NCBI GenBank assembly: GCA_964424305.1
Contig: CAYRHW010000006.1
Location: 1 to 58,612 of the forward strand
Length of the DNA stretch: 58,612 nucleotides
Origin: an uncultured Candidatus Saccharibacteria bacterium
GTDB lineage: Bacteria; Patescibacteriota; Minisyncoccia; Minisyncoccales; Staskawiczbacteraceae
Direction: 5' to 3'
The notes under the pieces were generated by a model. The model was not told the DNA's origin. It searched no databases and saw nothing but the letters and a program-made list of their open reading frames with translations. The translations under genes were made by a program, and so were the position numbers. This document shows positions 4,009 through 45,168 of this stretch, piece by piece. How positions within the stretch are numbered: the stretch's first letter is position 1; every line of letters begins with the position of its first letter.

Positions 4009-4974
4009 ATGAAAACAGTTGAAAAAATAGCTGAATATATACAGAAGAAAAGACAAGCAACGGTTAATGAGCTGGTCGATTACCTTGGGATAAATAGGAG
4101 TGCAGTATATAAGCATATTAACAAAATGCTTAAGCATAATGTCCTGGATAAGGTTGGTAGACCACCTAAGGTTTTTTATTTGCTGAAAGAAAAGCCGGAT
4201 AGGGAGAATGAGATTATCGATTCTGCAAAAAAAGACATAATCGAAAAAAACTATCTTATCATTACTCCCAGCGGAGAAAAAAAAGATGGATTTACGGGTT
4301 TTAATTATTGGTGTAATAAAAATAATCTAGATGTTCCTAAGACTGCGGATGAATATATAAAAACTCTTCTCAAATACAGTAAGTTTAAAAGGGGTGGTTT
4401 AATCGATGGGATGCAGAAATTTAGTAATACATTTAGTGAGGTATATCTAGATAAAATATTTTATCTAGATTTCTATAGCATAGAAAGGTTTGGGAAGACA
4501 AAGTTGGGTCAGCTTCTGCTTTATGGGAAGCAGAGTGGTAACAGGGTGATAATCAAACAAATAGTGGAAGAGATAAAACCTAAAATTAATGCATTGATCA
4601 AGAAATTTAATATTGATGCGGTCGGTTTTATACCATGGACAGTAAAAAGAGATGTCCAATTTATGCGGGAACTCGAAAAACAACTTAATCTCAGTATTAA
4701 AAGTATAAAGATCGAAAAAATCAAAACAGAGATTATCGTCCCGCAAAAAACCCTATCAAAGTTAGAAGATCGTATCGAAAACGCTAGAAAAACTCTTGTG
4801 CTTTCAGAGGGGGGTAAATATAATAACCTTCTTCTTATTGATGATGCCGTGGGTTCTGGAGCAACTTTGAATCAGGTAGCCAAACAGGTAAAAGATAAAA
4901 AAATTGCGAAGAAAGCAGTAGGCCTCTCAATCACGGGTAGCTTTAAGGGATTTGACGTAATTAGTGAGGTCTAA
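4009..4974 (+). CDS. winged-HTH + phosphoribosyltransferase-domain protein (PurR-like architecture)
   Basis: N-terminal wHTH (ATVNELVDYLGINRSAVYKHINKM). C-terminal PRTase PRPP loop (LLLIDDAVGSGATLNQ). The track ORF starts at GTG 3958, inside an 8-bp hairpin (GGTGGACA 3956-3963 / TGTCCACC 3977-3984), so ATG 4009 is preferred. Confidence 0.75.
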   Translation: MKTVEKIAEYIQKKRQATVNELVDYLGINRSAVYKHINKMLKHNVLDKVGRPPKVFYLLKEKPDRENEIIDSAKKDIIEKNYLIITPSGEKKDGFTGFNYWCNKNNLDVPKTADEYIKTLLKYSKFKRGGLIDGMQKFSNTFSEVYLDKIFYLDFYSIERFGKTKLGQLLLYGKQSGNRVIIKQIVEEIKPKINALIKKFNIDAVGFIPWTVKRDVQFMRELEKQLNLSIKSIKIEKIKTEIIVPQKTLSKLEDRIENARKTLVLSEGGKYNNLLLIDDAVGSGATLNQVAKQVKDKKIAKKAVGLSITGSFKGFDVISEV

Positions 4975-5007
4975 ATAGGATTATTTTTTATGAGTGGATT
5001 TATCTTA

Positions 5008-5097
5008 GTTCCAACAACCTTCACGATGCGGAGCAAAATTACCACCCTTTAATTGGGGTGGGTTTTTGATAGAATTAACAATATTAAATGGTAAATA
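5008..5097 (+). repeat. junction module E (33-nt core + terminator hairpin + two extended -10 elements)
   Basis: Core 5008-5040; hairpin CCACCC 5042-5047 / GGGTGG 5056-5061; T-run. TGaTAGAAT with -10 at 5070-5075 and TGgTAAATA with -10 at 5092-5097. ATG 5105 follows 7 nt later. Confidence 0.8.
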
Positions 5098-5104
5098 AAA
5101 AAAT

Positions 5105-5509
5105 ATGAACGCGTATAACTGGTACTCACAACTAATTAAACCAACATGGGCCCCGCCTAGTTGGCTTTTTGGGCCGGTGTGGACGGTTTTGTATGCGATT
5201 ATCGTGGTTTCTTTTGGTGCCGTGTTTTATAAAACATTCACAGGAAAATTTACACGTATTGTAGCGCTTCCTTTTATACTCAATCTCGTTTTTAATTTCG
5301 CCTTCACGCCATTGCAGTTTGGGCTGAGAAACAATCTTCTCGCCACGATTGATATTTTGCTTGTTCTGGGCACTCTCGTCTGGGCGCTCTACGCAATCTG
5401 GCACGTTTCGTCCGGTTTGCGCTGGGTCGTCTATGCTAACATCCCCTACTTACTCTGGGTTTCGTTTGCGACCGTTTTGCAACTGACAATCACGTATTTA
5501 AATAAGTAA
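5105..5509 (+). CDS. tspO: TspO/MBR family tryptophan-rich sensory protein
   Basis: WYSQLIKPTWAPPSWLFGPVWTVLY signature and a Trp-rich C-terminal half. At 134 aa it appears to lack the first TM helix of canonical 5-TM TspO. Confidence 0.85.
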   Translation: MNAYNWYSQLIKPTWAPPSWLFGPVWTVLYAIIVVSFGAVFYKTFTGKFTRIVALPFILNLVFNFAFTPLQFGLRNNLLATIDILLVLGTLVWALYAIWHVSSGLRWVVYANIPYLLWVSFATVLQLTITYLNK

Positions 5510-5510
5510 T

Positions 5511-5852
5511 ATGCGCGTATGGGATATACATCCAAAACATTTGTGTCGAAAGCATTTGCTCGCCGAGCATCGCGAACTTCACGGACTTTGGAATATTTTA
5601 ACTAAACATAATGGCAGGGGAGGGTATTCGCGCCACCCGGAGACCTTGCGCTGGGTTGGAAAACAAAAAGCTCTCTATCTGCGACATGAGGTGCTCGTAA
5701 AGGAATTCGCTCGCCGTGGATACCAGCATCGCACTCTGCTTGATAAAAAATTCGCCACAGGTTCCGGAAGTCAGCGCGTATTCGTCAATACTATTGGTGA
5801 ACAGAAGGTGATTTTGAAACAAAAGCCTTGCGAGTGTCTATTGCATGTCTAG
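5511..5852 (+). CDS. pyrimidine-dimer DNA glycosylase (DenV/Pyr_excise family)
   Basis: MRVWDIHPKHLCRKHLLAEHRELHGLWNIL...HPETLRW pattern typical of the family. It starts 2 nt after the tspO stop. Confidence 0.75.
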   Translation: MRVWDIHPKHLCRKHLLAEHRELHGLWNILTKHNGRGGYSRHPETLRWVGKQKALYLRHEVLVKEFARRGYQHRTLLDKKFATGSGSQRVFVNTIGEQKVILKQKPCECLLHV

Positions 5853-5856
5853 TCGG

Positions 5857-5951
5857 GGTTCGTAGCGGACAGTTGGCGGATCAAGATTCAGCGTTCGGAG
5901 CCATCAAAAGCACCTTTTAATTGAGGTGGTTTTTTGATAATATGGGATAAT
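5857..5951 (+). repeat. junction module F (GGTTC box + GGAGCC box + terminator hairpin + extended -10)
   Basis: GGTTC 5857-5861; GGAGCC 5897-5902; hairpin CACC 5911-5914 / GGTG 5925-5928; T-run 5930-5935; TGaTAATAT with -10 at 5938-5943 and TGgGATAAT with -10 at 5946-5951. There is a 29-nt identity with module A. Confidence 0.75.
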
Positions 5952-5962
5952 ATATAAAACTT

Positions 5963-6481
5963 ATGAAAAAAATATTAACATTTCTAATAATCGTTTTTCT
6001 GATAATAGTTTTATTATTCGTTGGTTGGTTTCTTTTCTTTCAAACAAAAAAGGGAACGAACGAAGAACAAGTAGCCGGTAATAAATATAGGAACGATTAT
6101 TATAAGTTTGAAATGATATATCCTCTTGATTGGAAAATGTCGACGATTGCAACAAAAACTCCACCATACTCTGTGTTGTTCACCATTAAATCAGAGAAAG
6201 ATGCGGATGAAGAAGTAAATATAGATTGTATCGATGGACAAGTCACTCTAACAGATTATTTTGGCGCAGGTGAAATTCAAAGAAGTTTGGTCGTTGATAT
6301 TACCTCAAATGGTTTTATATGGAAAAAGGTACGGAGACCCACTCATCCCAGGGATTTGTATGCCTTTATACAGAATAATGGGAAAACCTATGTTTTCTCC
6401 TATTCCTGTAACGAAAGTAATGGAAAAAATATTGATGCAAGATTCGAGCAAGTCATTTCTAATTTTAAGTTTTTACCATAA
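5963..6481 (+). CDS. membrane-anchored or secreted hypothetical protein
   Basis: 172-aa ORF with an N-terminal hydrophobic anchor (ILTFLIIVFLIIVLLFVGWFLFF). Confidence 0.65.
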   Translation: MKKILTFLIIVFLIIVLLFVGWFLFFQTKKGTNEEQVAGNKYRNDYYKFEMIYPLDWKMSTIATKTPPYSVLFTIKSEKDADEEVNIDCIDGQVTLTDYFGAGEIQRSLVVDITSNGFIWKKVRRPTHPRDLYAFIQNNGKTYVFSYSCNESNGKNIDARFEQVISNFKFLP

Positions 6482-6515
6482 ACCAGGTTTTAATATCATC
6501 TTTGACCCTTATTTT

Positions 6516-6577
6516 GGTTCCAACAACCCCCGATGCAGAGCTAATAAAATCGCTTTCTGGCGATTTTTTGGTAGAAT
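6516..6577 (+). repeat. junction module G (diverged core + terminator hairpin + extended -10)
   Basis: GGTTCCAACAACCCCCGATGCAGAGC 6516-6541; hairpin TCGC 6550-6553 / GCGA 6560-6563; T-run 6564-6569; TGgTAGAAT with -10 at 6572-6577. Confidence 0.7.
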
Positions 6578-6610
6578 GAAATAATATTATGAACCTAAAT
6601 TTAAATAATT

Positions 6611-6799
6611 ATGCACATCTTTAAAACGTGGACGTTCCGTTGGTGGGAGGTTAGTTTGATAAAATTATGCCTCATTTCTCTCGGCATTATTTTAACCGTC
6701 TATTTTTATGACTATCTCGTCGGTTTATTATGGTTTTGGTGGATACTTTTCATTGTGACCGCAATATATTTTATTACTGGGGCAATAAAAGAAAAGTAG
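6611..6799 (+). CDS. small 2-TM membrane protein
   Basis: 62-aa ORF with two hydrophobic helices. Confidence 0.5.
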   Translation: MHIFKTWTFRWWEVSLIKLCLISLGIILTVYFYDYLVGLLWFWWILFIVTAIYFITGAIKEK

Positions 6800-6904
6800 A
6801 AAAATAGTTTCCCAGATAGCCCAGAAGCTACCTTTTGTTGAAATGGATTTCGGTTGACTAAGATTTTTAGAATTAATAAACTAATATAATAATTATATAA
6901 GAAT

Positions 6905-7060
6905 ATGGTAAAAGGAAATTTCATCGGTGCGGCCATTGTCGCAATAATCTACACGGTTTACATTTTAATTAATCCCTTGCCAATAAAATTGCAAACAGCG
7001 GCAGCATTGGTGATTCTTAACGCCTTGACTATTGTGCTTTTGTCATTTGCATTCAAATAA
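6905..7060 (+). CDS. small membrane protein (51 aa, below the ORF-track cutoff)
   Basis: Hand-translated as MVKGNFIGAAIVAIIYTVYILINPLPIKLQTAAALVILNALTIVLLSFAFK*. It has two hydrophobic segments and fills an otherwise empty + strand gap. Confidence 0.4.
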   Translation: MVKGNFIGAAIVAIIYTVYILINPLPIKLQTAAALVILNALTIVLLSFAFK

Positions 7061-7096
7061 ATTTGCCACCAAAAGCATAATTTTATCATCATTATC

Positions 7097-7172
7097 CCCA
7101 ATCTATGGTTCTAAGCGCGCCTAGCCGGGACTCTCTATATAAGAAAAAAAGACCTTCATCGGGTCTTTTTTG
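7097..7172 (+). repeat. junction module H (GGTTCTAAGCG box + bidirectional terminator), with no + strand gene downstream
   Basis: TATGGTTCTAAGCG 7104-7117 is identical to 1275-1288. Hairpin AGACC 7150-7154 / GGTCT 7162-7166 is flanked by an A-run and a T-run, and also terminates the convergent gene 7156..7902. Confidence 0.6.
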
Positions 7173-7902
7173 CTACGTAAATAATTGTGTGCGGTGTGAG
7201 AGTAAATTTATCAAAATCGGGGGAGAGAATAAGCGGCTCATAGGGATATTTTGCTTTTTCTTCTATCGGCATTCGCGAGGGGTTGGTGGTAGTTTGCTCA
7301 ACGATTTTTGTAATGGCAAAGCCATTTACAGAAAGGGCATTAGTTACTTCTTCGATTGAGAGCTGGGCCTCGCTCCACTCTTTAGTGACATCTTTCGGTG
7401 TTGGAAAAAATTGACTGGGGTGAGTTAGGCAAAAGATAAAAGTTCCACCAGGAATTAAGATAATATTCACCCTCCCCAGGAAGCTTGAGAGAGAGAAATA
7501 GTCGTGGCAGATGAACCCTACGCCATAGCTCGAAAGCGCTACGTCAAATCTTCTGTCTCCGAGAATGGCGGTCAGCTCATTGGCATTGCCACAAAAAAGT
7601 TCAATGGAGACCCCCTCATTAGCAGAGAGAGTTTTTGCTGCCTGGATCATGTCTTCAGAAATATCAATGCCGACTGAGTTTCCACCCCACTTTGCTATGG
7701 TTATGGAGTTTTGAGCTGCTCCACAAGCAATTTCTACAACTCGTTTTCCATTAAGTCCCAGTGGCCCGCCCAGAAGAAGTAGGTCGCGCTCGCCGGGAGA
7801 GAGGTATCCGTAGTGGATATCATTTGTCGAAATTCTAACATTAGTTCTGTAGGTTCTGCAAAAATCGCCGCTCTTCCATACGCTCTCTTCTACCGTTGGC
7901 AT
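7156..7902 (-). CDS. class I SAM-dependent methyltransferase
   Basis: Motif I VVEIACGAAQNS, DISEDMI, and post-I FDVALSSYG. Confidence 0.8.
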   Translation of the reverse strand: MPTVEESVWKSGDFCRTYRTNVRISTNDIHYGYLSPGERDLLLLGGPLGLNGKRVVEIACGAAQNSITIAKWGGNSVGIDISEDMIQAAKTLSANEGVSIELFCGNANELTAILGDRRFDVALSSYGVGFICHDYFSLSSFLGRVNIILIPGGTFIFCLTHPSQFFPTPKDVTKEWSEAQLSIEEVTNALSVNGFAITKIVEQTTTNPSRMPIEEKAKYPYEPLILSPDFDKFTLTPHTIIYVAKKTR

Positions 7903-8038
7903 GTTATTTACTCCCTATAAAAGATCTAATATTAATTTACAACGGGGCGATGAATCTGTCCATATGGGGGTATTTCCCACGATTTTTTGTGGTTCCTTCT
8001 GGCTTGCGAGTTTTAGGTGGACAATATAGGATAAAGGT

Positions 8039-32395: not shown

Positions 32396-32411
32396 ATATT
32401 TTATCCACAGT

Positions 32412-32435
32412 CGCGTCCATTGACGCGCCTTTTTA
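32412..32435 (+). terminator. intrinsic terminator after queH
   Basis: CGCGTC 32412-32417 / GACGCG 32422-32427, then CC and a T-run at 32430-32434. Confidence 0.7.
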
Positions 32436-32451
32436 TTAGTAATAAAATCTA

Positions 32452-32472
32452 ATTAGGAATAATTATTAATAA
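32452..32472 (+). promoter_or_regulatory. candidate Fur/PerR box overlapping the promoter of the fur-family operon
   Basis: A perfect 10-nt palindrome AATAATTATT at 32458-32467, within TTAGGAATAATTATTAATAAC, 5-25 nt upstream of ATG 32477. Caveat: the background is AT-rich. Confidence 0.4.
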
Positions 32473-32476
32473 CAAC

Positions 32477-32842
32477 ATGGAAAGAAAAACACCACAGAAG
32501 CAAAAGGTATTAGATTATCTTAGGGGTGTATACACCCACCCATCGGCCGAAACAGTTTATGCTGCCGTTAAGAAGAAGGTGCCGAATATCAGCAAAGGGA
32601 CGGTTTATAGGATATTAAAGAATGCTGTGGGGAAAAAAGAAATTCAGGAAATTCCGGCCGAGGTCTCAAGATATGATGGCAATGTTTCCTCTCATGCTCA
32701 TTTCGTTTGCGAAAAGTGCAGTAGCATCTACGACCTTATGGATTTTTGCCAAGATTGTTCTATTTTAAAAAATAAAAAAACAAAGGTCGGAAAAATTAAT
32801 AAATACACAGTAAATTTTTATGGAATCTGTAACAAATGCTAA
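32477..32842 (+). CDS. Fur family transcriptional regulator (PerR-like by context)
   Basis: Short wHTH (HPSAETVYAAV...ISKGTVYRIL) plus two CxxC pairs (CEKC, CNKC). Confidence 0.8.
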   Translation: MERKTPQKQKVLDYLRGVYTHPSAETVYAAVKKKVPNISKGTVYRILKNAVGKKEIQEIPAEVSRYDGNVSSHAHFVCEKCSSIYDLMDFCQDCSILKNKKTKVGKINKYTVNFYGICNKC

Positions 32843-32849
32843 TAATATA

Positions 32850-33122
32850 ATGGAGGGAAAGTGTCACGACTGCGAAACAAAAATACAGTTTGCTGGGGAA
32901 GAAATAAAAAATGGGGTGCAATTGGTTTATGATAACAATGGGGAGAAGGTGAAGGTTTTTAAATGTAATGATTGCTACGCCAAAAGCAGGGTACTTAATA
33001 ATTTCCAGCAGTGTGAGGTGTATTCTAGGGTGGTGGGGTATATAAGGCCCGTTAGCCAATGGCACAAGGGGAAGAAGCAGGAATACGGGGAAAGGAAGGA
33101 GTACAATTGTGAAAGCTGTTAA
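32850..33122 (+). CDS. stand-alone NrdD C-terminal domain: zinc ribbon + glycyl-radical motif mini-protein (90 aa)
   Basis: CHDC...CNDC zinc ribbon, then YSRVVGYIRPVSQWHKGKKQEYGERKEY, matching the class III RNR glycyl-radical segment (R-V-x-G-Y...N/H-x-G-K-x-x-E). ATG 32850 removes the overlap with the fur-family gene. Confidence 0.7.
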   Translation: MEGKCHDCETKIQFAGEEIKNGVQLVYDNNGEKVKVFKCNDCYAKSRVLNNFQQCEVYSRVVGYIRPVSQWHKGKKQEYGERKEYNCESC

Positions 33123-33133
33123 TATATATAAAT

Positions 33134-33508
33134 ATGATAGCAATAAAACAAGTATATCGTTGTAGCGTCTGTGGGAATATTGTGGAGGTTCTCTTCGCAG
33201 GCGGGGGCGAGTTGGTCTGTTGCGGCAAGCCGATGATTTTACAGGAAGAGAAGAGCGAAGATGTGGGGTCAGAGAAACATGTCCCGATTGTTACGAGGGA
33301 GGGAGACAAGATAAAGATAAGAGTTGGGAGTGTTCTCCACCCAATGGATCCCGAGCACTATATCGAGTGGATAGAGTGCAGCAATGGAGAAAGCTATTCT
33401 AGAAAATTCTTAAAACCAGGTGACTCTCCGGAGGCAGAATTCGAAATGATGGGAGATAACATAGGCGCCCGAGCCTACTGTAATATTCATGGACTTTGGA
33501 GGTCATAA
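33134..33508 (+). CDS. dfx: desulfoferrodoxin (2Fe superoxide reductase)
   Basis: N-terminal desulforedoxin CSVCGN...CCGKPM. Centre II ligands sit in EKHVP, HPMDPEHYIEW and CNIHGLW. Confidence 0.9.
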   Translation: MIAIKQVYRCSVCGNIVEVLFAGGGELVCCGKPMILQEEKSEDVGSEKHVPIVTREGDKIKIRVGSVLHPMDPEHYIEWIECSNGESYSRKFLKPGDSPEAEFEMMGDNIGARAYCNIHGLWRS

Positions 33509-33521
33509 TGATTAAAACCTT

Positions 33522-33546
33522 AAAACCCCGTTGAAGCGGGGTTTTT
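33522..33546 (+). terminator. intrinsic terminator after dfx
   Basis: CCCCG 33526-33530 / CGGGG 33537-33541, with a T-run at 33542-33546. TGtTAGAAT follows. Confidence 0.75.
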
Positions 33547-33586
33547 AAGGTGTTAGAATGATAATATAAATAATTAATTTAAACCC

Positions 33587-35733: not shown

Positions 35734-36189
35734 ATGAGAAAGGTAACGATTATCGTGGCGTTTTTTCTCCTAGTGGCCGGTGTTGCTTCGGTAGCAACTA
35801 TCCACTACATGGAGGACGAGCGGGAGGCGATGAACGCGGTGAGTCAGCCGAAGACGGCGGCGGTCATACCTTCCGGCGCCATCGACGCCGGAGAGGGAAG
35901 GTACATCAAGTACCTCGAAAAAGACGGGAAAACGTACGCGGGTGTTGTCATCCCTCGCACACCCAGCAACAATGTCTGCGAGGAGAGAAGGCCAGGCCAC
36001 TATCGTCAGATGGCCCGCGGTCTCCTGGAGATCCACGACGAGCATCGACTGTGGACTGACGAGAAACAGGAGAAGAAAGGGGACCAAATGGTCGTTGTTT
36101 TCCGGTTGATAACACCGGACGAACAACGCCAGGCCAAGGAAGCCGGGGAGGAAATGTCGAAACCCCTCGACCTAGAGGGGATGAAGTAG
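35734..36189 (+). CDS. GC-rich membrane-anchored hypothetical protein (likely horizontally acquired)
   Basis: 151-aa ORF with an N-terminal TM (VTIIVAFFLLVAGVASVA). My hand count of 35761-36180 gives 242 G+C of 420 nt, versus 19/60 and 25/60 in two flanking lines. Overlapping ORFs in several frames are a GC artefact. Confidence 0.65.
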   Translation: MRKVTIIVAFFLLVAGVASVATIHYMEDEREAMNAVSQPKTAAVIPSGAIDAGEGRYIKYLEKDGKTYAGVVIPRTPSNNVCEERRPGHYRQMARGLLEIHDEHRLWTDEKQEKKGDQMVVVFRLITPDEQRQAKEAGEEMSKPLDLEGMK

Positions 36190-36227
36190 GGAGGGAGCTT
36201 CCACGAGGAGGATGCTTCACAGTGTAT

Positions 36228-36721: not shown

Positions 36722-37869
36722 AGAGAATATATTTAGATTATGCAGCAACCACTCCCGTCGACCCTCGTGTTCTTAGGGCGATGGTTCCTTTTTTTACAAA
36801 AAGGTTTGGGAACACAATGTCTCTCCATTCTTTCGGTCAGGATGCAAAATTAGTTTTAGAAGAAAGCCGAGAAAAAGTGGCCAGTTTAATCGGAGCTAAA
36901 TCAGAAGAGATAATATTTACGAGTTCTGCCACCGAAAGTAATAATTTTGCATTAAAGGGATTGGCTTTTGCTAATAAAGATAAAAAACATATCATTGTCT
37001 CTGCAATCGAGCATCCCTGTGTTATAGAAAGTGCTAATTGGCTAAAAAAACAAGGGTATCAAATAACAAGGGTCCCTGTTAATAAATTTGGGCAAGTTAA
37101 TCCGGAAGATGTTAAGAGGGCCATAACCAAAGATACGCTTTTGGTTTCTATTATCCATGCTTCAAACGAGATAGGAACTATTCAGCCAATAGAGAAAATT
37201 GGAAAGATCTGCAGAGAGGCAGGTGTATATTTTCATACAGATGCATCTCAGAGCTTCGGAAAGATTTCCATTGATGTTAATAAGATGAATATCGACTTAC
37301 TTACAGCCAGTGGCCATAAAATATATGGGCCAAAGGGTGTAGGACTTTTGTTTATACGTCATGGTGTAAAAATTGAGCCCTTACTGCACGGAGGAGGACA
37401 GGAAAATGGTTTGAGATCTTCAACTGTGAACATTCCTGCTATTGTTGGTTTTGCCAGAGCAGTTGAAATCTGTAATGAAGAAATGAAAACAGAGGGCGGG
37501 AGATTAATAAAATTAAGGGATAAATTAATAAAAGGGGTTTTAAAGATAAAAAATAGTTATTTAAACGGACACCCAGAAGACAGGCTCCCAAATAATGCTA
37601 ATTTCCGCTTTGATTTTATAGAAGGAGAATCTTTGATCATCCAGTTGGATATGGCAGGAGTAGCCTGTTCTACTGGTTCTGCCTGCTCTTCAATTAAATT
37701 AGAGCCAAGCCATGTTCTATTGGCAATTGGATTAAAGGCGGAACAGGCCCATGGATCATTGCGTGTTTCTCTGGGGCGTCAAACAACAGAAAGTGATGTC
37801 GATTATTTAGTTAAGATTTTACCCGGGATAATTAAACAATTAAGGAGTATTTCTCCATTTGGAAAATAA
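36718..37869 (+). CDS. nifS: cysteine desulfurase (NifS/IscS class)
   Basis: PLP Lys in SGHKIYGPKG and catalytic Cys loop STGSACSS. It overlaps the Rrf2 stop (ATGA). Confidence 0.92.
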   Translation: MKRIYLDYAATTPVDPRVLRAMVPFFTKRFGNTMSLHSFGQDAKLVLEESREKVASLIGAKSEEIIFTSSATESNNFALKGLAFANKDKKHIIVSAIEHPCVIESANWLKKQGYQITRVPVNKFGQVNPEDVKRAITKDTLLVSIIHASNEIGTIQPIEKIGKICREAGVYFHTDASQSFGKISIDVNKMNIDLLTASGHKIYGPKGVGLLFIRHGVKIEPLLHGGGQENGLRSSTVNIPAIVGFARAVEICNEEMKTEGGRLIKLRDKLIKGVLKIKNSYLNGHPEDRLPNNANFRFDFIEGESLIIQLDMAGVACSTGSACSSIKLEPSHVLLAIGLKAEQAHGSLRVSLGRQTTESDVDYLVKILPGIIKQLRSISPFGK

Positions 37870-37870
37870 C

Positions 37871-39457
37871 ATGAAACCAACGAGTGTTTATACAAAAAAG
37901 GTTTTAAGTCTATTTAAAAAACCTCATAACTACGGAAGAATGAAAAATGCAGACGGTATCGGCAGGGTGGGGAATCCAGTTTGTTTACTCCCAGGGCAGA
38001 ATGTTCACATGAATAATGATATGAATGAGATAAACGCAATTTCCAGAGAAGATAGAGTTTTATCTCACGATGGATTATATAACTTTGTTGATAAAATTGC
38101 AGAAAGAAATTACGTCGGAGAAATTTTGGAAGTAAAAAATGGTCTAGGAAAGATCAAATTAACATCAGAGCACCTTGTGTTGGCGATAAAAATTCCCGAA
38201 GGAGATAAATTCTTAAGGACAAAAAATAGGAAAAAATTATCCGTTGGTTGGTATCATATAAATCAACTGGAAAAAGGAGATATGGTTTTATACCCCATAT
38301 TGAAAGAGAAAAAGGATTTAGCGTATTTAAAAATAGATGTCCCCATGGCCAAATGGGATTTTAGAAGTAAGGAGATCCCGAGTAAGGTTCCCGTTAATTC
38401 GGAATTTTTGAGGCTAGTTGGTTACTTTTTGGCAGAGGGGAATATCCAAGATAAGCCATGCAAGACTTACATCTCGTTTTCTTTAAATATACAAGAAAAA
38501 TACATCGTTGAGGATATAAAGAAAATATCAAAAGACTTATTTGGTCTAGATGCGACCTCGAAAGAGAAGAAAAAAACTAAAACGGTCGTCGTGTATCTAT
38601 ACAGCGCGAGATTAGCAAGGTTTTTTAAGCAATTATTCGGTAACGGAGCCGAGCATAAAAAACTCCCTGAGGTTTTTATGAATTTACCTATTAAAAAACA
38701 GGAACATTTAATATGTGGATTGTGGCGGGGTGACGGTTGCGTCAATTTGAATAGGGACGGCGCAAGGGCAGGGTATTCAACGGTTTCTTATAATTTAGCT
38801 CAACAGCTAAAAACACTACTCATTAGGCAAAAGATAGTGCCATCTATTTATAAAGAAAAAGCGAGAGAAATAAATGGAGTTAGACATAAGGAGTCATATA
38901 GGATCCATGTTGGCCAACGGGAATCTTTAACGAGGTTATGCTTAATATTAGGCATAAAATATAAGGCAAAGTCTTATGCTTCAGAGAAATTATGGGTTGA
39001 TGATGATTATGTTTACACCCCAATAACGAAAATTACGAAAAATAAATATAAAGGTAATGTTTATAATCTGGAGGTCAAGGGGTCCCATTCTTTTGTAACA
39101 GAGGCTTTTTGTCTTCATAATTGTGGCGATGTAATGTGGCTATATATCAAAGTCGGCCAAAATAAGAAGAAGCAGGAGATAATAAAAGACATTAAGTTTG
39201 AAACTTTCGGCTGCGTAGCCGCAATATCCACTAGTAGCATAATCACGGACCTAGCCAAGGGGAAAACAATAACAGAAGCCCTAGAAATTACCAAAGATAA
39301 TGTTGTTGATTCTTTGGGGGGATTGCCCAAGATAAAATTCCATTGTTCGGTTTTGGCAGTAGATGCTTTAGCCGAGGCAATTTTTGATTATCTGAAGAAG
39401 AATAAAAAAGAAATACCCGCAAGTTTAAAAAAGTTTCATGAAAGAAACGAAGTCTAA
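37871..39457 (+). CDS. iscU: Fe-S cluster scaffold IscU/NifU, interrupted by a 380-aa intein
   Basis: Exteins GRVGNPV | CGDVMWLYIKV...FGCVAAISTSS...KFHCSVLA carry the three conserved IscU Cys. The spliced size would be 148 aa. Confidence 0.88.
   Translation: MKPTSVYTKKVLSLFKKPHNYGRMKNADGIGRVGNPVCLLPGQNVHMNNDMNEINAISREDRVLSHDGLYNFVDKIAERNYVGEILEVKNGLGKIKLTSEHLVLAIKIPEGDKFLRTKNRKKLSVGWYHINQLEKGDMVLYPILKEKKDLAYLKIDVPMAKWDFRSKEIPSKVPVNSEFLRLVGYFLAEGNIQDKPCKTYISFSLNIQEKYIVEDIKKISKDLFGLDATSKEKKKTKTVVVYLYSARLARFFKQLFGNGAEHKKLPEVFMNLPIKKQEHLICGLWRGDGCVNLNRDGARAGYSTVSYNLAQQLKTLLIRQKIVPSIYKEKAREINGVRHKESYRIHVGQRESLTRLCLILGIKYKAKSYASEKLWVDDDYVYTPITKITKNKYKGNVYNLEVKGSHSFVTEAFCLHNCGDVMWLYIKVGQNKKKQEIIKDIKFETFGCVAAISTSSIITDLAKGKTITEALEITKDNVVDSLGGLPKIKFHCSVLAVDALAEAIFDYLKKNKKEIPASLKKFHERNEV
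37982..39121 (+). mobile_element. intein with LAGLIDADG homing endonuclease, inserted at the first cluster-ligand Cys of IscU
   Basis: Block A CLLPG (Cys1 = 37982-37984), block B LTSEH, LAGLIDADG motifs LVGYFLAEGN and ICGLWRGDGC, and terminal VYNLEVKGSHSFVTEAFCLHN followed by +1 Cys (39122). Confidence 0.85.
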
Positions 39458-43978: not shown

Positions 43979-44093
43979 GAGCGCAGTTAGTAATTATTAG
44001 TAATTAGTATATAAATCAAGGTCGAGTTAATAAAACATAATTAACTTCTGATCGTAGGTTAAATAGAACAAAATCTACGATAGGAAGAAATTA

Positions 44094-44304: not shown

Positions 44305-45168
44305 ATGGAAAATATTAAAAACAAGATTATCGTGGGATTAATAGGGCTGTTGGTTTTACTTAATATTATCTCTTGGGATGAAGTATCTAGGCTGTCTTCC
44401 GGAAACGATTTAATGGTAGATTTTTTAAACGTTGGCCAAGGTGACTCTATTTTCATTACCACGCCCGGTAATCAGCAAATATTAATTGATGGGGGGCCCG
44501 ATTCAACGGTTTTAGAGAAATTGAGCAAAGAGATGCCCGTCTATGACAAAACCATTGAATTGATCGTCTTAACCCACCCAGAGAAAGACCACCTTGCCGG
44601 ATTGCTCGATGTGCTCAGAAGGTATAGGGTAAAGAATATCCTGTGGACGGGGATTGTAAAAAATACGGCCGAATGGCAGGAATGGGACAGACTAATTAAG
44701 GAAGAGGGGGCAAATATTAAAATAGCGGAAGCAGGGGATCGGGTGGTTTTGCAAAAAGATAATCCCACAATATTCTTTGATATTTTAAACCCAGGGGAGG
44801 ATTTATCGGGTAGGGAATTCGAGGACAGCAATGATACCGCAACGGTTCTTTGTTTGACCGTGGGTGAGAAGAAGTTTTTATTCACTGGAGATATTGGGTT
44901 TGGAGTAGAAAACCAATTAATAAAAGAAAACATTGTAGCAGATGTGCTTAAAGTTGCTCACCATGGGAGCAAGTATTCAACTTCGGAAGAATTTCTTAAA
45001 CAACTTTCTCCCAACGTAGCCGTCATATCAGTTGGGCAAAATACTTACGGACACCCAACAGACGAACTCTTGGCAAGACTGAATAATTTTGGTATAGATA
45101 TTAAAAGAACCGATCGGGATGGAGACATTAAAATTTTCTCTAATGGAGAAATTATCACATACAAATAA
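44305..45168 (+). CDS. ComEC/Rec2-related metallo-beta-lactamase domain protein
   Basis: TM anchor plus MBL motifs VGQGDSIFI, THPEKDHLAG and LKVAHHGSK. There is no competence channel domain. Confidence 0.8.
   Translation: MENIKNKIIVGLIGLLVLLNIISWDEVSRLSSGNDLMVDFLNVGQGDSIFITTPGNQQILIDGGPDSTVLEKLSKEMPVYDKTIELIVLTHPEKDHLAGLLDVLRRYRVKNILWTGIVKNTAEWQEWDRLIKEEGANIKIAEAGDRVVLQKDNPTIFFDILNPGEDLSGREFEDSNDTATVLCLTVGEKKFLFTGDIGFGVENQLIKENIVADVLKVAHHGSKYSTSEEFLKQLSPNVAVISVGQNTYGHPTDELLARLNNFGIDIKRTDRDGDIKIFSNGEIITYK

Follow-up and report, generated by a model that had tools for sequence, protein, structure and literature searches.

We examined a 58,612-nucleotide (nt) stretch of DNA from an uncultured Candidatus Saccharibacteria bacterium (assembly GCA_964424305.1, contig CAYRHW010000006.1; hereafter the window), focusing on a small gene that resembles the C-terminal end of the anaerobic (class III) ribonucleotide reductase (RNR) NrdD and that we call mini-NrdD. 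Three tightly packed genes on the plus strand, running from a promoter to a terminator, encode a Fur-family protein, mini-NrdD, and desulfoferrodoxin, respectively, and tgt and queH sit 5' of them (Table 1). Among NCBIfam models, the Fur-family protein matched those of PerR best (87.4 and 84 bits, under the cut-offs of 180 and 200, respectively), followed by Fur (48 bits) and Zur (21 bits). The desulfoferrodoxin, composed of an N-terminal FeS4 domain and a neelaredoxin domain (Pfam Desulfoferrod_N and Desulfoferrodox), cleared the equivalog cut-off of TIGR00320 (181.3 bits; cut-off, 146.9). Both neighbours had been named in an earlier note made from the sequence alone, and the model scores agree with these identifications.

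Cleavage of glycyl radical enzymes by oxygen is irreversible, and to our knowledge the sole known remedy is GrcA/YfiD, which serves pyruvate formate-lyase (PFL). On balance, we lean towards the reading that mini-NrdD is a trans-acting glycyl-radical domain (GRD), which would be activated by NrdG and would dock into NrdD to restore its activity after oxygen cleavage.

Table 1. Features of the three-gene operon and its flanks (positions in the window; aa, amino acids)
Feature	Position	Strand	Remarks
TTATCCACA, DnaA-box consensus	32401..32409	+	~9 nt 5' of the -35 element
Sigma-70-type promoter, TTGACG / 17 nt spacer / TAAAAT	32420..32448	+	10/12 consensus positions
Candidate Fur/PerR-type operator TAATTAGGAATAATTAT	32450..32466	+	immediately 3' of the -10 element
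Fur-family repressor, PerR-like, 121 aa	32477..32842	+	Pfam FUR, E 3.9e-19
Mini-NrdD, stand-alone glycyl-radical domain, 100 aa	32820..33122	+
Gly73 codon, predicted radical site	33036..33038	+
Desulfoferrodoxin (2Fe superoxide reductase), 124 aa	33134..33508	+	starts 11 nt past the mini-gene
Intrinsic-terminator-like hairpin and U-run, end of the three-gene operon	33513..33555	+	RNA fold

Anatomy of the mini-protein

Homologues of mini-NrdD uniformly begin with 'ME..' about 12 residues ahead of the first cysteine, and the start of the mini-gene was therefore assigned to the ATG at 32820, 30 nt further 5' than the start at 32850 (90 aa) proposed earlier. Gene callers concur with the resulting 100 aa (record P0001, contig k141_50589, ena:ERZ27248937). 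From this start, the mini-gene shares its first 23 nt with the 3' end of the PerR-like Fur gene, stop codon included, and is translationally coupled to it. The protein has seven cysteines, namely the knuckles C15/C18 and C49/C52, C65 adjoining the radical motif, and the variable C-terminal C97/C100; the zinc ribbon recognised in the earlier note is thus present, and its count of four cysteines was too low. From the N-terminus, the elements are the C15-x2-C18...C49-x2-C52 zinc ribbon, C65, the R70-V-V-G73-Y74 radical motif, and the tail RPVSQWHKGKKQEYGERKEY. Gly73 is invariant in all 120 family members and aligns with the invariant G683 of NrdD from the Candidate Phyla Radiation (CPR). Both CxxC knuckles are likewise invariant in the family alignment, and the full set of invariant residues comprises C15, D17, C18, K48, C49, C52, C65, EVYSR, V72, G73, Y74, RP, QW, GK, E88, and R92.

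The claim that the protein corresponds to the C-terminal glycyl-radical segment of NrdD without the barrel held, as the matches were restricted to the ends of both NrdD models: positions 521-562 of 562 in Pfam NRDD (PF13597; E 3.5e-10) and positions 536-580 of 581 in TIGR02487 (33.7 bits; cut-off, 326). The radical motif aligned not only with these hidden Markov models but also in a profile-profile comparison by hhalign, in which a profile of 120 family members was matched to one of 21 CPR NrdDs with a probability of 99.7%, an E-value of 3.2e-26, and 63% identity. There, mini residues 46-96 corresponded to NrdD residues 663-711 of 724, a stretch spanning the second zinc knuckle, the radical loop (CEVYSRVVGY), and the tail (RPVxQWHKGKxQEYxERKEF). 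The zinc site, buried Gly loop, and surface tail are the known parts of the NrdD GRD (PMC11226230). An architecture of zinc ribbon, NrdD Gly loop, and C-terminal tail with no catalytic barrel was therefore confirmed at the level of sequence. No match to Gly_radical (PF01228) was found in the mini-protein at E <= 0.1, the Pfam scan returning PF13597 alone, and neither the Pfam nor the NCBIfam scan yielded a model dedicated to the mini family. In a profile search of PDB sequences, the top match was the C-terminus of Thermotoga maritima NrdD, although it was weak (E 0.22).

The N-terminal half is family-specific and consists of a CHDC knuckle, a beta-hairpin of approximately 30 residues, KCxxC, and a 12-residue linker. 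The elements of the mini-protein follow the order seen in the NrdD GRD (e.g., Prevotella copri residues 676-739 and T. maritima 4COI), whereas the latter is attached to the barrel and has CPxH as its first knuckle; the mini-protein is detached, with CHDC, the 30-residue hairpin insert, and a longer linker.

Full-length NrdD and the mini family

A tblastn search of the window with full-length CPR NrdD returned a match at 32958-33119 only, that is, in the mini-gene itself, indicating that no decayed nrdD lies near it. Queries of NrdG, FtsA, FtsZ, and class I/II RNR gave no tblastn match in the window. A scan of one genome per GTDB species recovered minis as well as C-terminal ends of full-length NrdDs, and the reading frames of these loci were inspected. 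In 13 related genomes, a mini co-occurred with NrdG and a full-length NrdD with an intact radical motif; eight of these carry the mini in an nrdD operon and five in a Fur operon (both settings are described below). The latter five encode NrdD (723-761 aa, with its own motif) and NrdG elsewhere in the genome. Three of them are metagenome-assembled genomes (MAGs) in which the mini and nrdD-nrdG occupy separate contigs: JAKLDQ01 (mini L010, nrdD L051; NrdD of 761 aa), CAZIJR01 (L005 and L063; 724 aa), and CAVWMZ01 (L008 and L070), in which the NrdD frame is interrupted and the assembly also splits the Fur gene. The other two are near-complete genomes with both genes on one contig (NrdD P0305 with the L007 mini on 737,971 bp, and NrdD P0358 with the P0105 mini on 844,674 bp). 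The NrdDs of the related genomes end in ...CPxC...CEVYSRVVGY...RKEF and retain their own zinc site, and EVYSR[IV]VGY is kept in 120/120 of the closest NrdDs. As a separate observation, five CPR NrdD genes (L057, L061, L078, L079, and L082) are 1051-1486 aa long, and inteins with LAGLIDADG endonucleases were found in both of those scanned (L057 and L078).

At 90% identity, the homologue search gave 564 clusters. The 120 highest-ranking ones were all 92-111 aa long and 64-83% identical, and a search with a Desulfobacterota-type member added 592 more clusters of approximately 111-135 aa. With clustering at 50% identity, the 150 best representatives included at least 81 complete minis (79-159 aa). 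The mini-gene is under strong purifying selection: the median dN/dS of unsaturated pairs was 0.13 for the whole gene and fell to 0.08 over the Gly loop and tail. Synonymous sites were saturated among CPR members, for which pN was 0.24 across the full length and 0.15 across loop and tail. The source annotations disagree, ranging from 'ribonucleoside-triphosphate reductase' and 'hypothetical protein' to 'ribosomal protein L40E'.

These results bear on the explanation that the open reading frame (ORF) is a detached nrdD C-terminus, either half of a split nrdD or a pseudogene remnant, which we regard as extremely improbable. It can draw on phage contigs in which ORFs of 45-67 aa, limited to the Gly loop, lie beside ORFs of approximately 440-470 aa, probably as split nrdD genes. 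Against it, nrdD sequence is otherwise absent from the window, the mini family has its own zinc ribbon, unlike that of NrdD, and the NrdDs of relatives are complete with their own GRD. The remnant was rejected given the 564 homologue clusters, the median dN/dS of 0.13, and the lack of nrdD debris in the window; the split gene was rejected for the relatives, where NrdD (708-761 aa, with CEVYSRVVGY) keeps its zinc site and radical Gly and NrdG lies beside it or near. Both possibilities had been raised in the earlier note as grounds for doubt, and neither was borne out, the split gene as judged from the relatives.

Among CPR and DPANN loci, two genomic contexts recur. The Fur-type context comprises 18 loci, including the window. 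A Fur gene lies immediately 5' in 14 of them, in most cases with an overlap of 23-32 nt at the mini start, and a same-strand gene for a detoxifying enzyme, namely Fe/Mn superoxide dismutase (SOD), desulfoferrodoxin, rubrerythrin, or 1-Cys peroxiredoxin, lies 3' in 14. All 18 loci have Fur 5' and/or a detoxifying enzyme 3', and 10 have both. Retention of the mini while the detoxifying enzyme varies is characteristic of a functional stress module, and the earlier assignment as an oxidative-stress gene stood up in this survey, with the context kept across swaps of SOD, superoxide reductase (SOR), rubrerythrin, and peroxiredoxin. The operon-type context comprises eight loci of Minisyncoccales and Paceibacterota with the order ftsA-ftsZ-nrdD-mini-nrdG, encoding NrdDs of 708-711 aa and minis of 92-95 aa. 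The minis of these loci share the family-specific zinc ribbon and have Thr in place of C65. Genomes with the Fur-type context have nrdD-nrdG with no mini in between.

Two further observations concern Fur-type loci. A small gene, sm63, encoding 56-85 aa with CxxC...CxxC, lies between the mini-gene and SOD in seven loci (L001 10328-10504, L007 10286-10477, L004, L005, L008, L010, and L011) and has no counterpart in the window; it gave no significant Pfam match. In L001, a class I RNR (nrdA with an ATP-cone, and nrdB; 4419-7988) is located 2 kb 5' of the Fur-mini-SOD operon, and, as nrdD and nrdG are also present in this genome, this CPR organism carries aerobic and anaerobic RNRs together with a mini.

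Beyond CPR, minis were found in DPANN archaea, and minis with an extra N-terminal helix in many Desulfobacterales, in Syntrophales, in one Bacteriovoracaceae MAG, and in one MAG of Methanophagales (ANME-1, anaerobic methanotrophic archaea). We searched for a cultured host of the Desulfobacterota-type mini, and the sources were MAGs or metagenomes only. Complete minis also occur among the terminase, portal, head, tail-sheath, and tape-measure genes of tailed-phage contigs. The archaeal virus ANMV-1 (KP703175.1) carries one of 144 aa (AJP62049.1; L168 3866-4300), annotated as nrdD, anaerobic ribonucleoside triphosphate reductase, and read as an oxygen-sensitive RNR in a 2015 paper (PMC4372165). 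This protein shares CHDC...KCxxC...CEMYSRIVGY with the mini family and, at 144 aa, cannot be a reductase. Across bacteria, archaea, and phages, EVYSRVVGY, RP, QW, and GK show little or no variation. Ten viral contigs (L124, L127, L141, L145, L150, L154, L159, L161, L164, and L167) contain the above-mentioned ORFs of 45-67 aa, which have the Gly loop and tail and no zinc ribbon; in L127, L141, and L150, they sit 3' of the ORFs of approximately 440-470 aa and of small ORFs. Considered as minis, they were set aside as probable nrdD exons or split genes with the Gly loop only; introns or homing endonucleases probably interrupt nrdD in these phages, and the ORFs do not belong to the mini family.

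We regard as improbable the explanation that the mini is a zinc-ribbon protein that has lost radical chemistry and, for instance, senses redox state or metals or interacts with the PerR-like regulator or the SOR. The seven cysteines with their variable C-terminal CxxC, the tight coupling to Fur, and the Desulfobacterota-type members outside any RNR context would suit such a role. The strongest conservation, however, is that of the radical fingerprint and not of the cysteines: the operon-type members have Thr at the position of C65, and the C-terminal cysteines are often missing.

Minis and NrdDs of the same genome appear to share constraints. Over a 32-residue core, the two proteins of one genome share 28.3/31 residues, compared with 23.8 +/- 2.2 between genomes, and the core is 84-97% identical between a mini and its same-genome NrdD. 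Lineage variants travel together in both proteins, with WHKGK..EY in Staskawiczbacteria-like members and WNEGK..EF in Minisyncoccales. Unlinked mini/NrdD pairs differ at 13-16 synonymous versus 3-5 non-synonymous codons, and, since synonymous differences outnumber non-synonymous ones, these pairs have been kept alike by selection and not by recent copying. In the adjacent pairs (L020-L029), the DNA of the Gly loop is 94% identical within a locus versus 78% between loci, which points to gene conversion, that is, concerted evolution of the adjacent mini and nrdD. The surface tail of the mini is conserved as strongly as the Gly loop, which suggests docking on NrdD rather than binding of the activase alone.

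The conserved tail is relevant to another explanation, that the mini is a sacrificial decoy that occupies NrdG under oxidative stress, so that radicals arise and are destroyed by oxygen on a cheap 100-aa protein, and the 720-aa enzyme is protected and not repaired. The Gly loop of the mini is identical to the NrdG substrate, and an operon under a PerR-like repressor would produce the mini just when activation of NrdD is dangerous. However, by analogy with PFL activase, binding of the activase would need the Gly loop alone, whereas the surface tail and the lineage variants (WHKGK vs WNEGK, EY vs EF) track the cognate NrdD. A decoy would also make little sense as a constitutive product of nrdD-mini-nrdG operons or on phages that need deoxynucleoside triphosphates (dNTPs), and we consider it unlikely.

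Alternatively, the mini could be a routine exchangeable radical subunit, making the class III RNR of these lineages a two-component enzyme with a replaceable cartridge that is used not only for damage repair. The nrdD-mini-nrdG operons imply co-expression, gene conversion keeps both Gly loops identical, and, GrcA is reported to serve full-length inactive PFL in vivo as well (Kammel and Sawers 2022). This possibility nevertheless seems to us quite unlikely, because all of the NrdDs examined retain the invariant Gly motif and zinc site, so that the enzyme would be self-sufficient, and because most CPR loci place the mini-gene behind a stress-type promoter, apart from nrdD. Compared with a trans-acting GRD that replaces damaged NrdD domains, the decoy, routine-subunit, and non-radical explanations account less well for the conserved tail, the intact GRDs of NrdD, and the invariant radical fingerprint.

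Regulatory region and other features of the window

TTGACGCG and the -10 element are kept 5' of the Fur gene across related loci. The candidate operator has the consensus TAATTAG(G/T)AATnATTAT(T/C), occupies an identical position in related loci, and is conserved at the DNA level. The palindrome AATAATTATT (32457-32466), which is contained in it, had been described as standing directly before the mini-gene; it exists, and it lies 5' of the Fur gene and hence of the whole operon. Allowing up to two mismatches, the operator box has three matches in the window versus 0.38 expected. Another such Fur/PerR-like palindromic box, with two mismatches relative to that of the operon, is intergenic at 43990-44010; the gene 3' of it (44305-45168) encodes a metallo-beta-lactamase fold with a weak match to ODP (diiron), and the box may be a further target of the same regulator.

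The DnaA-box consensus TTATCCACA is present in two copies in the window versus 0.59 expected and recurs at equal spacing in 8/14 related loci. In Escherichia coli, nrd promoters are linked to replication control, and the element might tie the Fur-mini-SOR operon to such control as well. The terminator-like hairpin folds with -21.1 kcal/mol (z = -5.07 vs shuffles).

Two features elsewhere in the window are recorded here. A NifU/IscU scaffold gene with an intein and a LAGLIDADG homing endonuclease (532 aa; 37859-39457; Pfam NifU_N, Intein_splicing, and LAGLIDADG_3) lies within a cluster of Rrf2, cysteine desulfurase, IscU, MnmA, and ThiI. At 35800-36199, a GC island (58% vs a background of ~38%) spans a 151-aa ORF (35734-36189) with no Pfam match and may be foreign DNA.

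Proposed function and significance

A trans-acting GRD is the simplest fit to the stress operon, nrdDG operon, and phage settings taken together. We infer activation of the mini by NrdG, its docking into NrdD, and derepression of the operon by oxidants through the PerR-like repressor, which would combine as follows. The PerR-like repressor would keep the Fur-mini-SOR operon off by means of the promoter-overlapping operator; oxidative stress would derepress it, and the mini-protein would build up together with the superoxide reductase. Meanwhile, activated NrdD would be cut by oxygen at the radical glycine. Upon the return of anoxia, NrdG would place a radical on Gly73 of the mini, whose Gly loop and tail would insert into the barrel of damaged or radical-less NrdD, replacing the enzyme's own GRD, and dNTP synthesis could restart without remaking a protein of approximately 720 aa.

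By analogy, we are inclined to view the mini as the functional NrdD counterpart of the PFL spare part GrcA/YfiD of E. coli. In both, the C-terminal part of a small stand-alone protein copies the GRD of a full-length glycyl radical enzyme of the same cell (for the mini, as seen in 13 related genomes), with an invariant radical Gly, high identity to the cognate C-terminus, and an N-terminal part unrelated to the enzyme. They differ in the parent enzyme (PFL vs NrdD) and the Pfam family (PF01228 vs PF13597); in addition, the N-terminus of GrcA is disordered, whereas the mini has a zinc ribbon and, as predicted, regulation by a PerR-like repressor. The phage minis likewise have a parallel in Y06I of bacteriophage T4, a phage homologue of GrcA (PMC8683613), which is also a phage-borne stand-alone GRD without a catalytic barrel; Y06I serves PFL, whereas the minis of phages and ANMV-1 copy the NrdD GRD. 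Only two spare parts, both for PFL, have been validated, and a 2021 paper and a 2026 review call the existence of others undetermined (PMC8683613, PMC13450708). We found no description of an NrdD spare part in the literature, in agreement with these two sources and with the statement in the earlier note that no NrdD equivalent had been described. The mini family is probably the first radical-enzyme 'spare part' beyond PFL. For a wider proposal, the balance appears to us to be even: minis would be portable glycyl-radical cartridges for class III RNR, shared across domains and carried by phages as the first non-PFL spare parts, with control by a PerR-type peroxide sensor in CPR, which would coordinate the repair of DNA-precursor synthesis with the detoxification of superoxide and peroxide, and with phages using them to sustain host NrdD.

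Several points weigh against the activation and docking of the mini as proposed. The PerR assignment of the repressor scores below the curated cut-offs. Neither nrdD nor nrdG was located for the genome of the window, and both are absent from the 58.6-kb window itself. The Desulfobacterota-type minis show no conserved neighbourhood, neither stress nor RNR. The AlphaFold2 model of the mini, built from the 120-sequence alignment, is of low confidence (pLDDT, the predicted local distance difference test, of 64), and a Foldseek search of the PDB with it gave no match at E <= 0.001. The zinc ribbon is unlike that of NrdD, with 30 residues between the knuckles versus approximately 9 and a linker of 12 versus 5; because of this difference in spacing, the docking geometry is not to be assumed. 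Moreover, NrdD's own zinc ribbon would survive oxygen cleavage and need displacing, and induction under oxygen would be futile unless the mini persists until anoxia.

The spare-part principle is already known; what is new here is a family that bears a zinc ribbon and relates to a different enzyme. The mini family provides a concrete and abundant spare-part candidate for the DNA-precursor enzyme of anaerobes, making an open question testable at the bench, and the 'ribonucleotide reductase' labels that databases and the literature attach to proteins of approximately 100 aa would need correction. If the proposed function is true, anaerobe phages would have a new auxiliary gene, and the mini would explain how genome-reduced CPR and DPANN organisms, sulfate reducers, and ANME survive transient oxygen.

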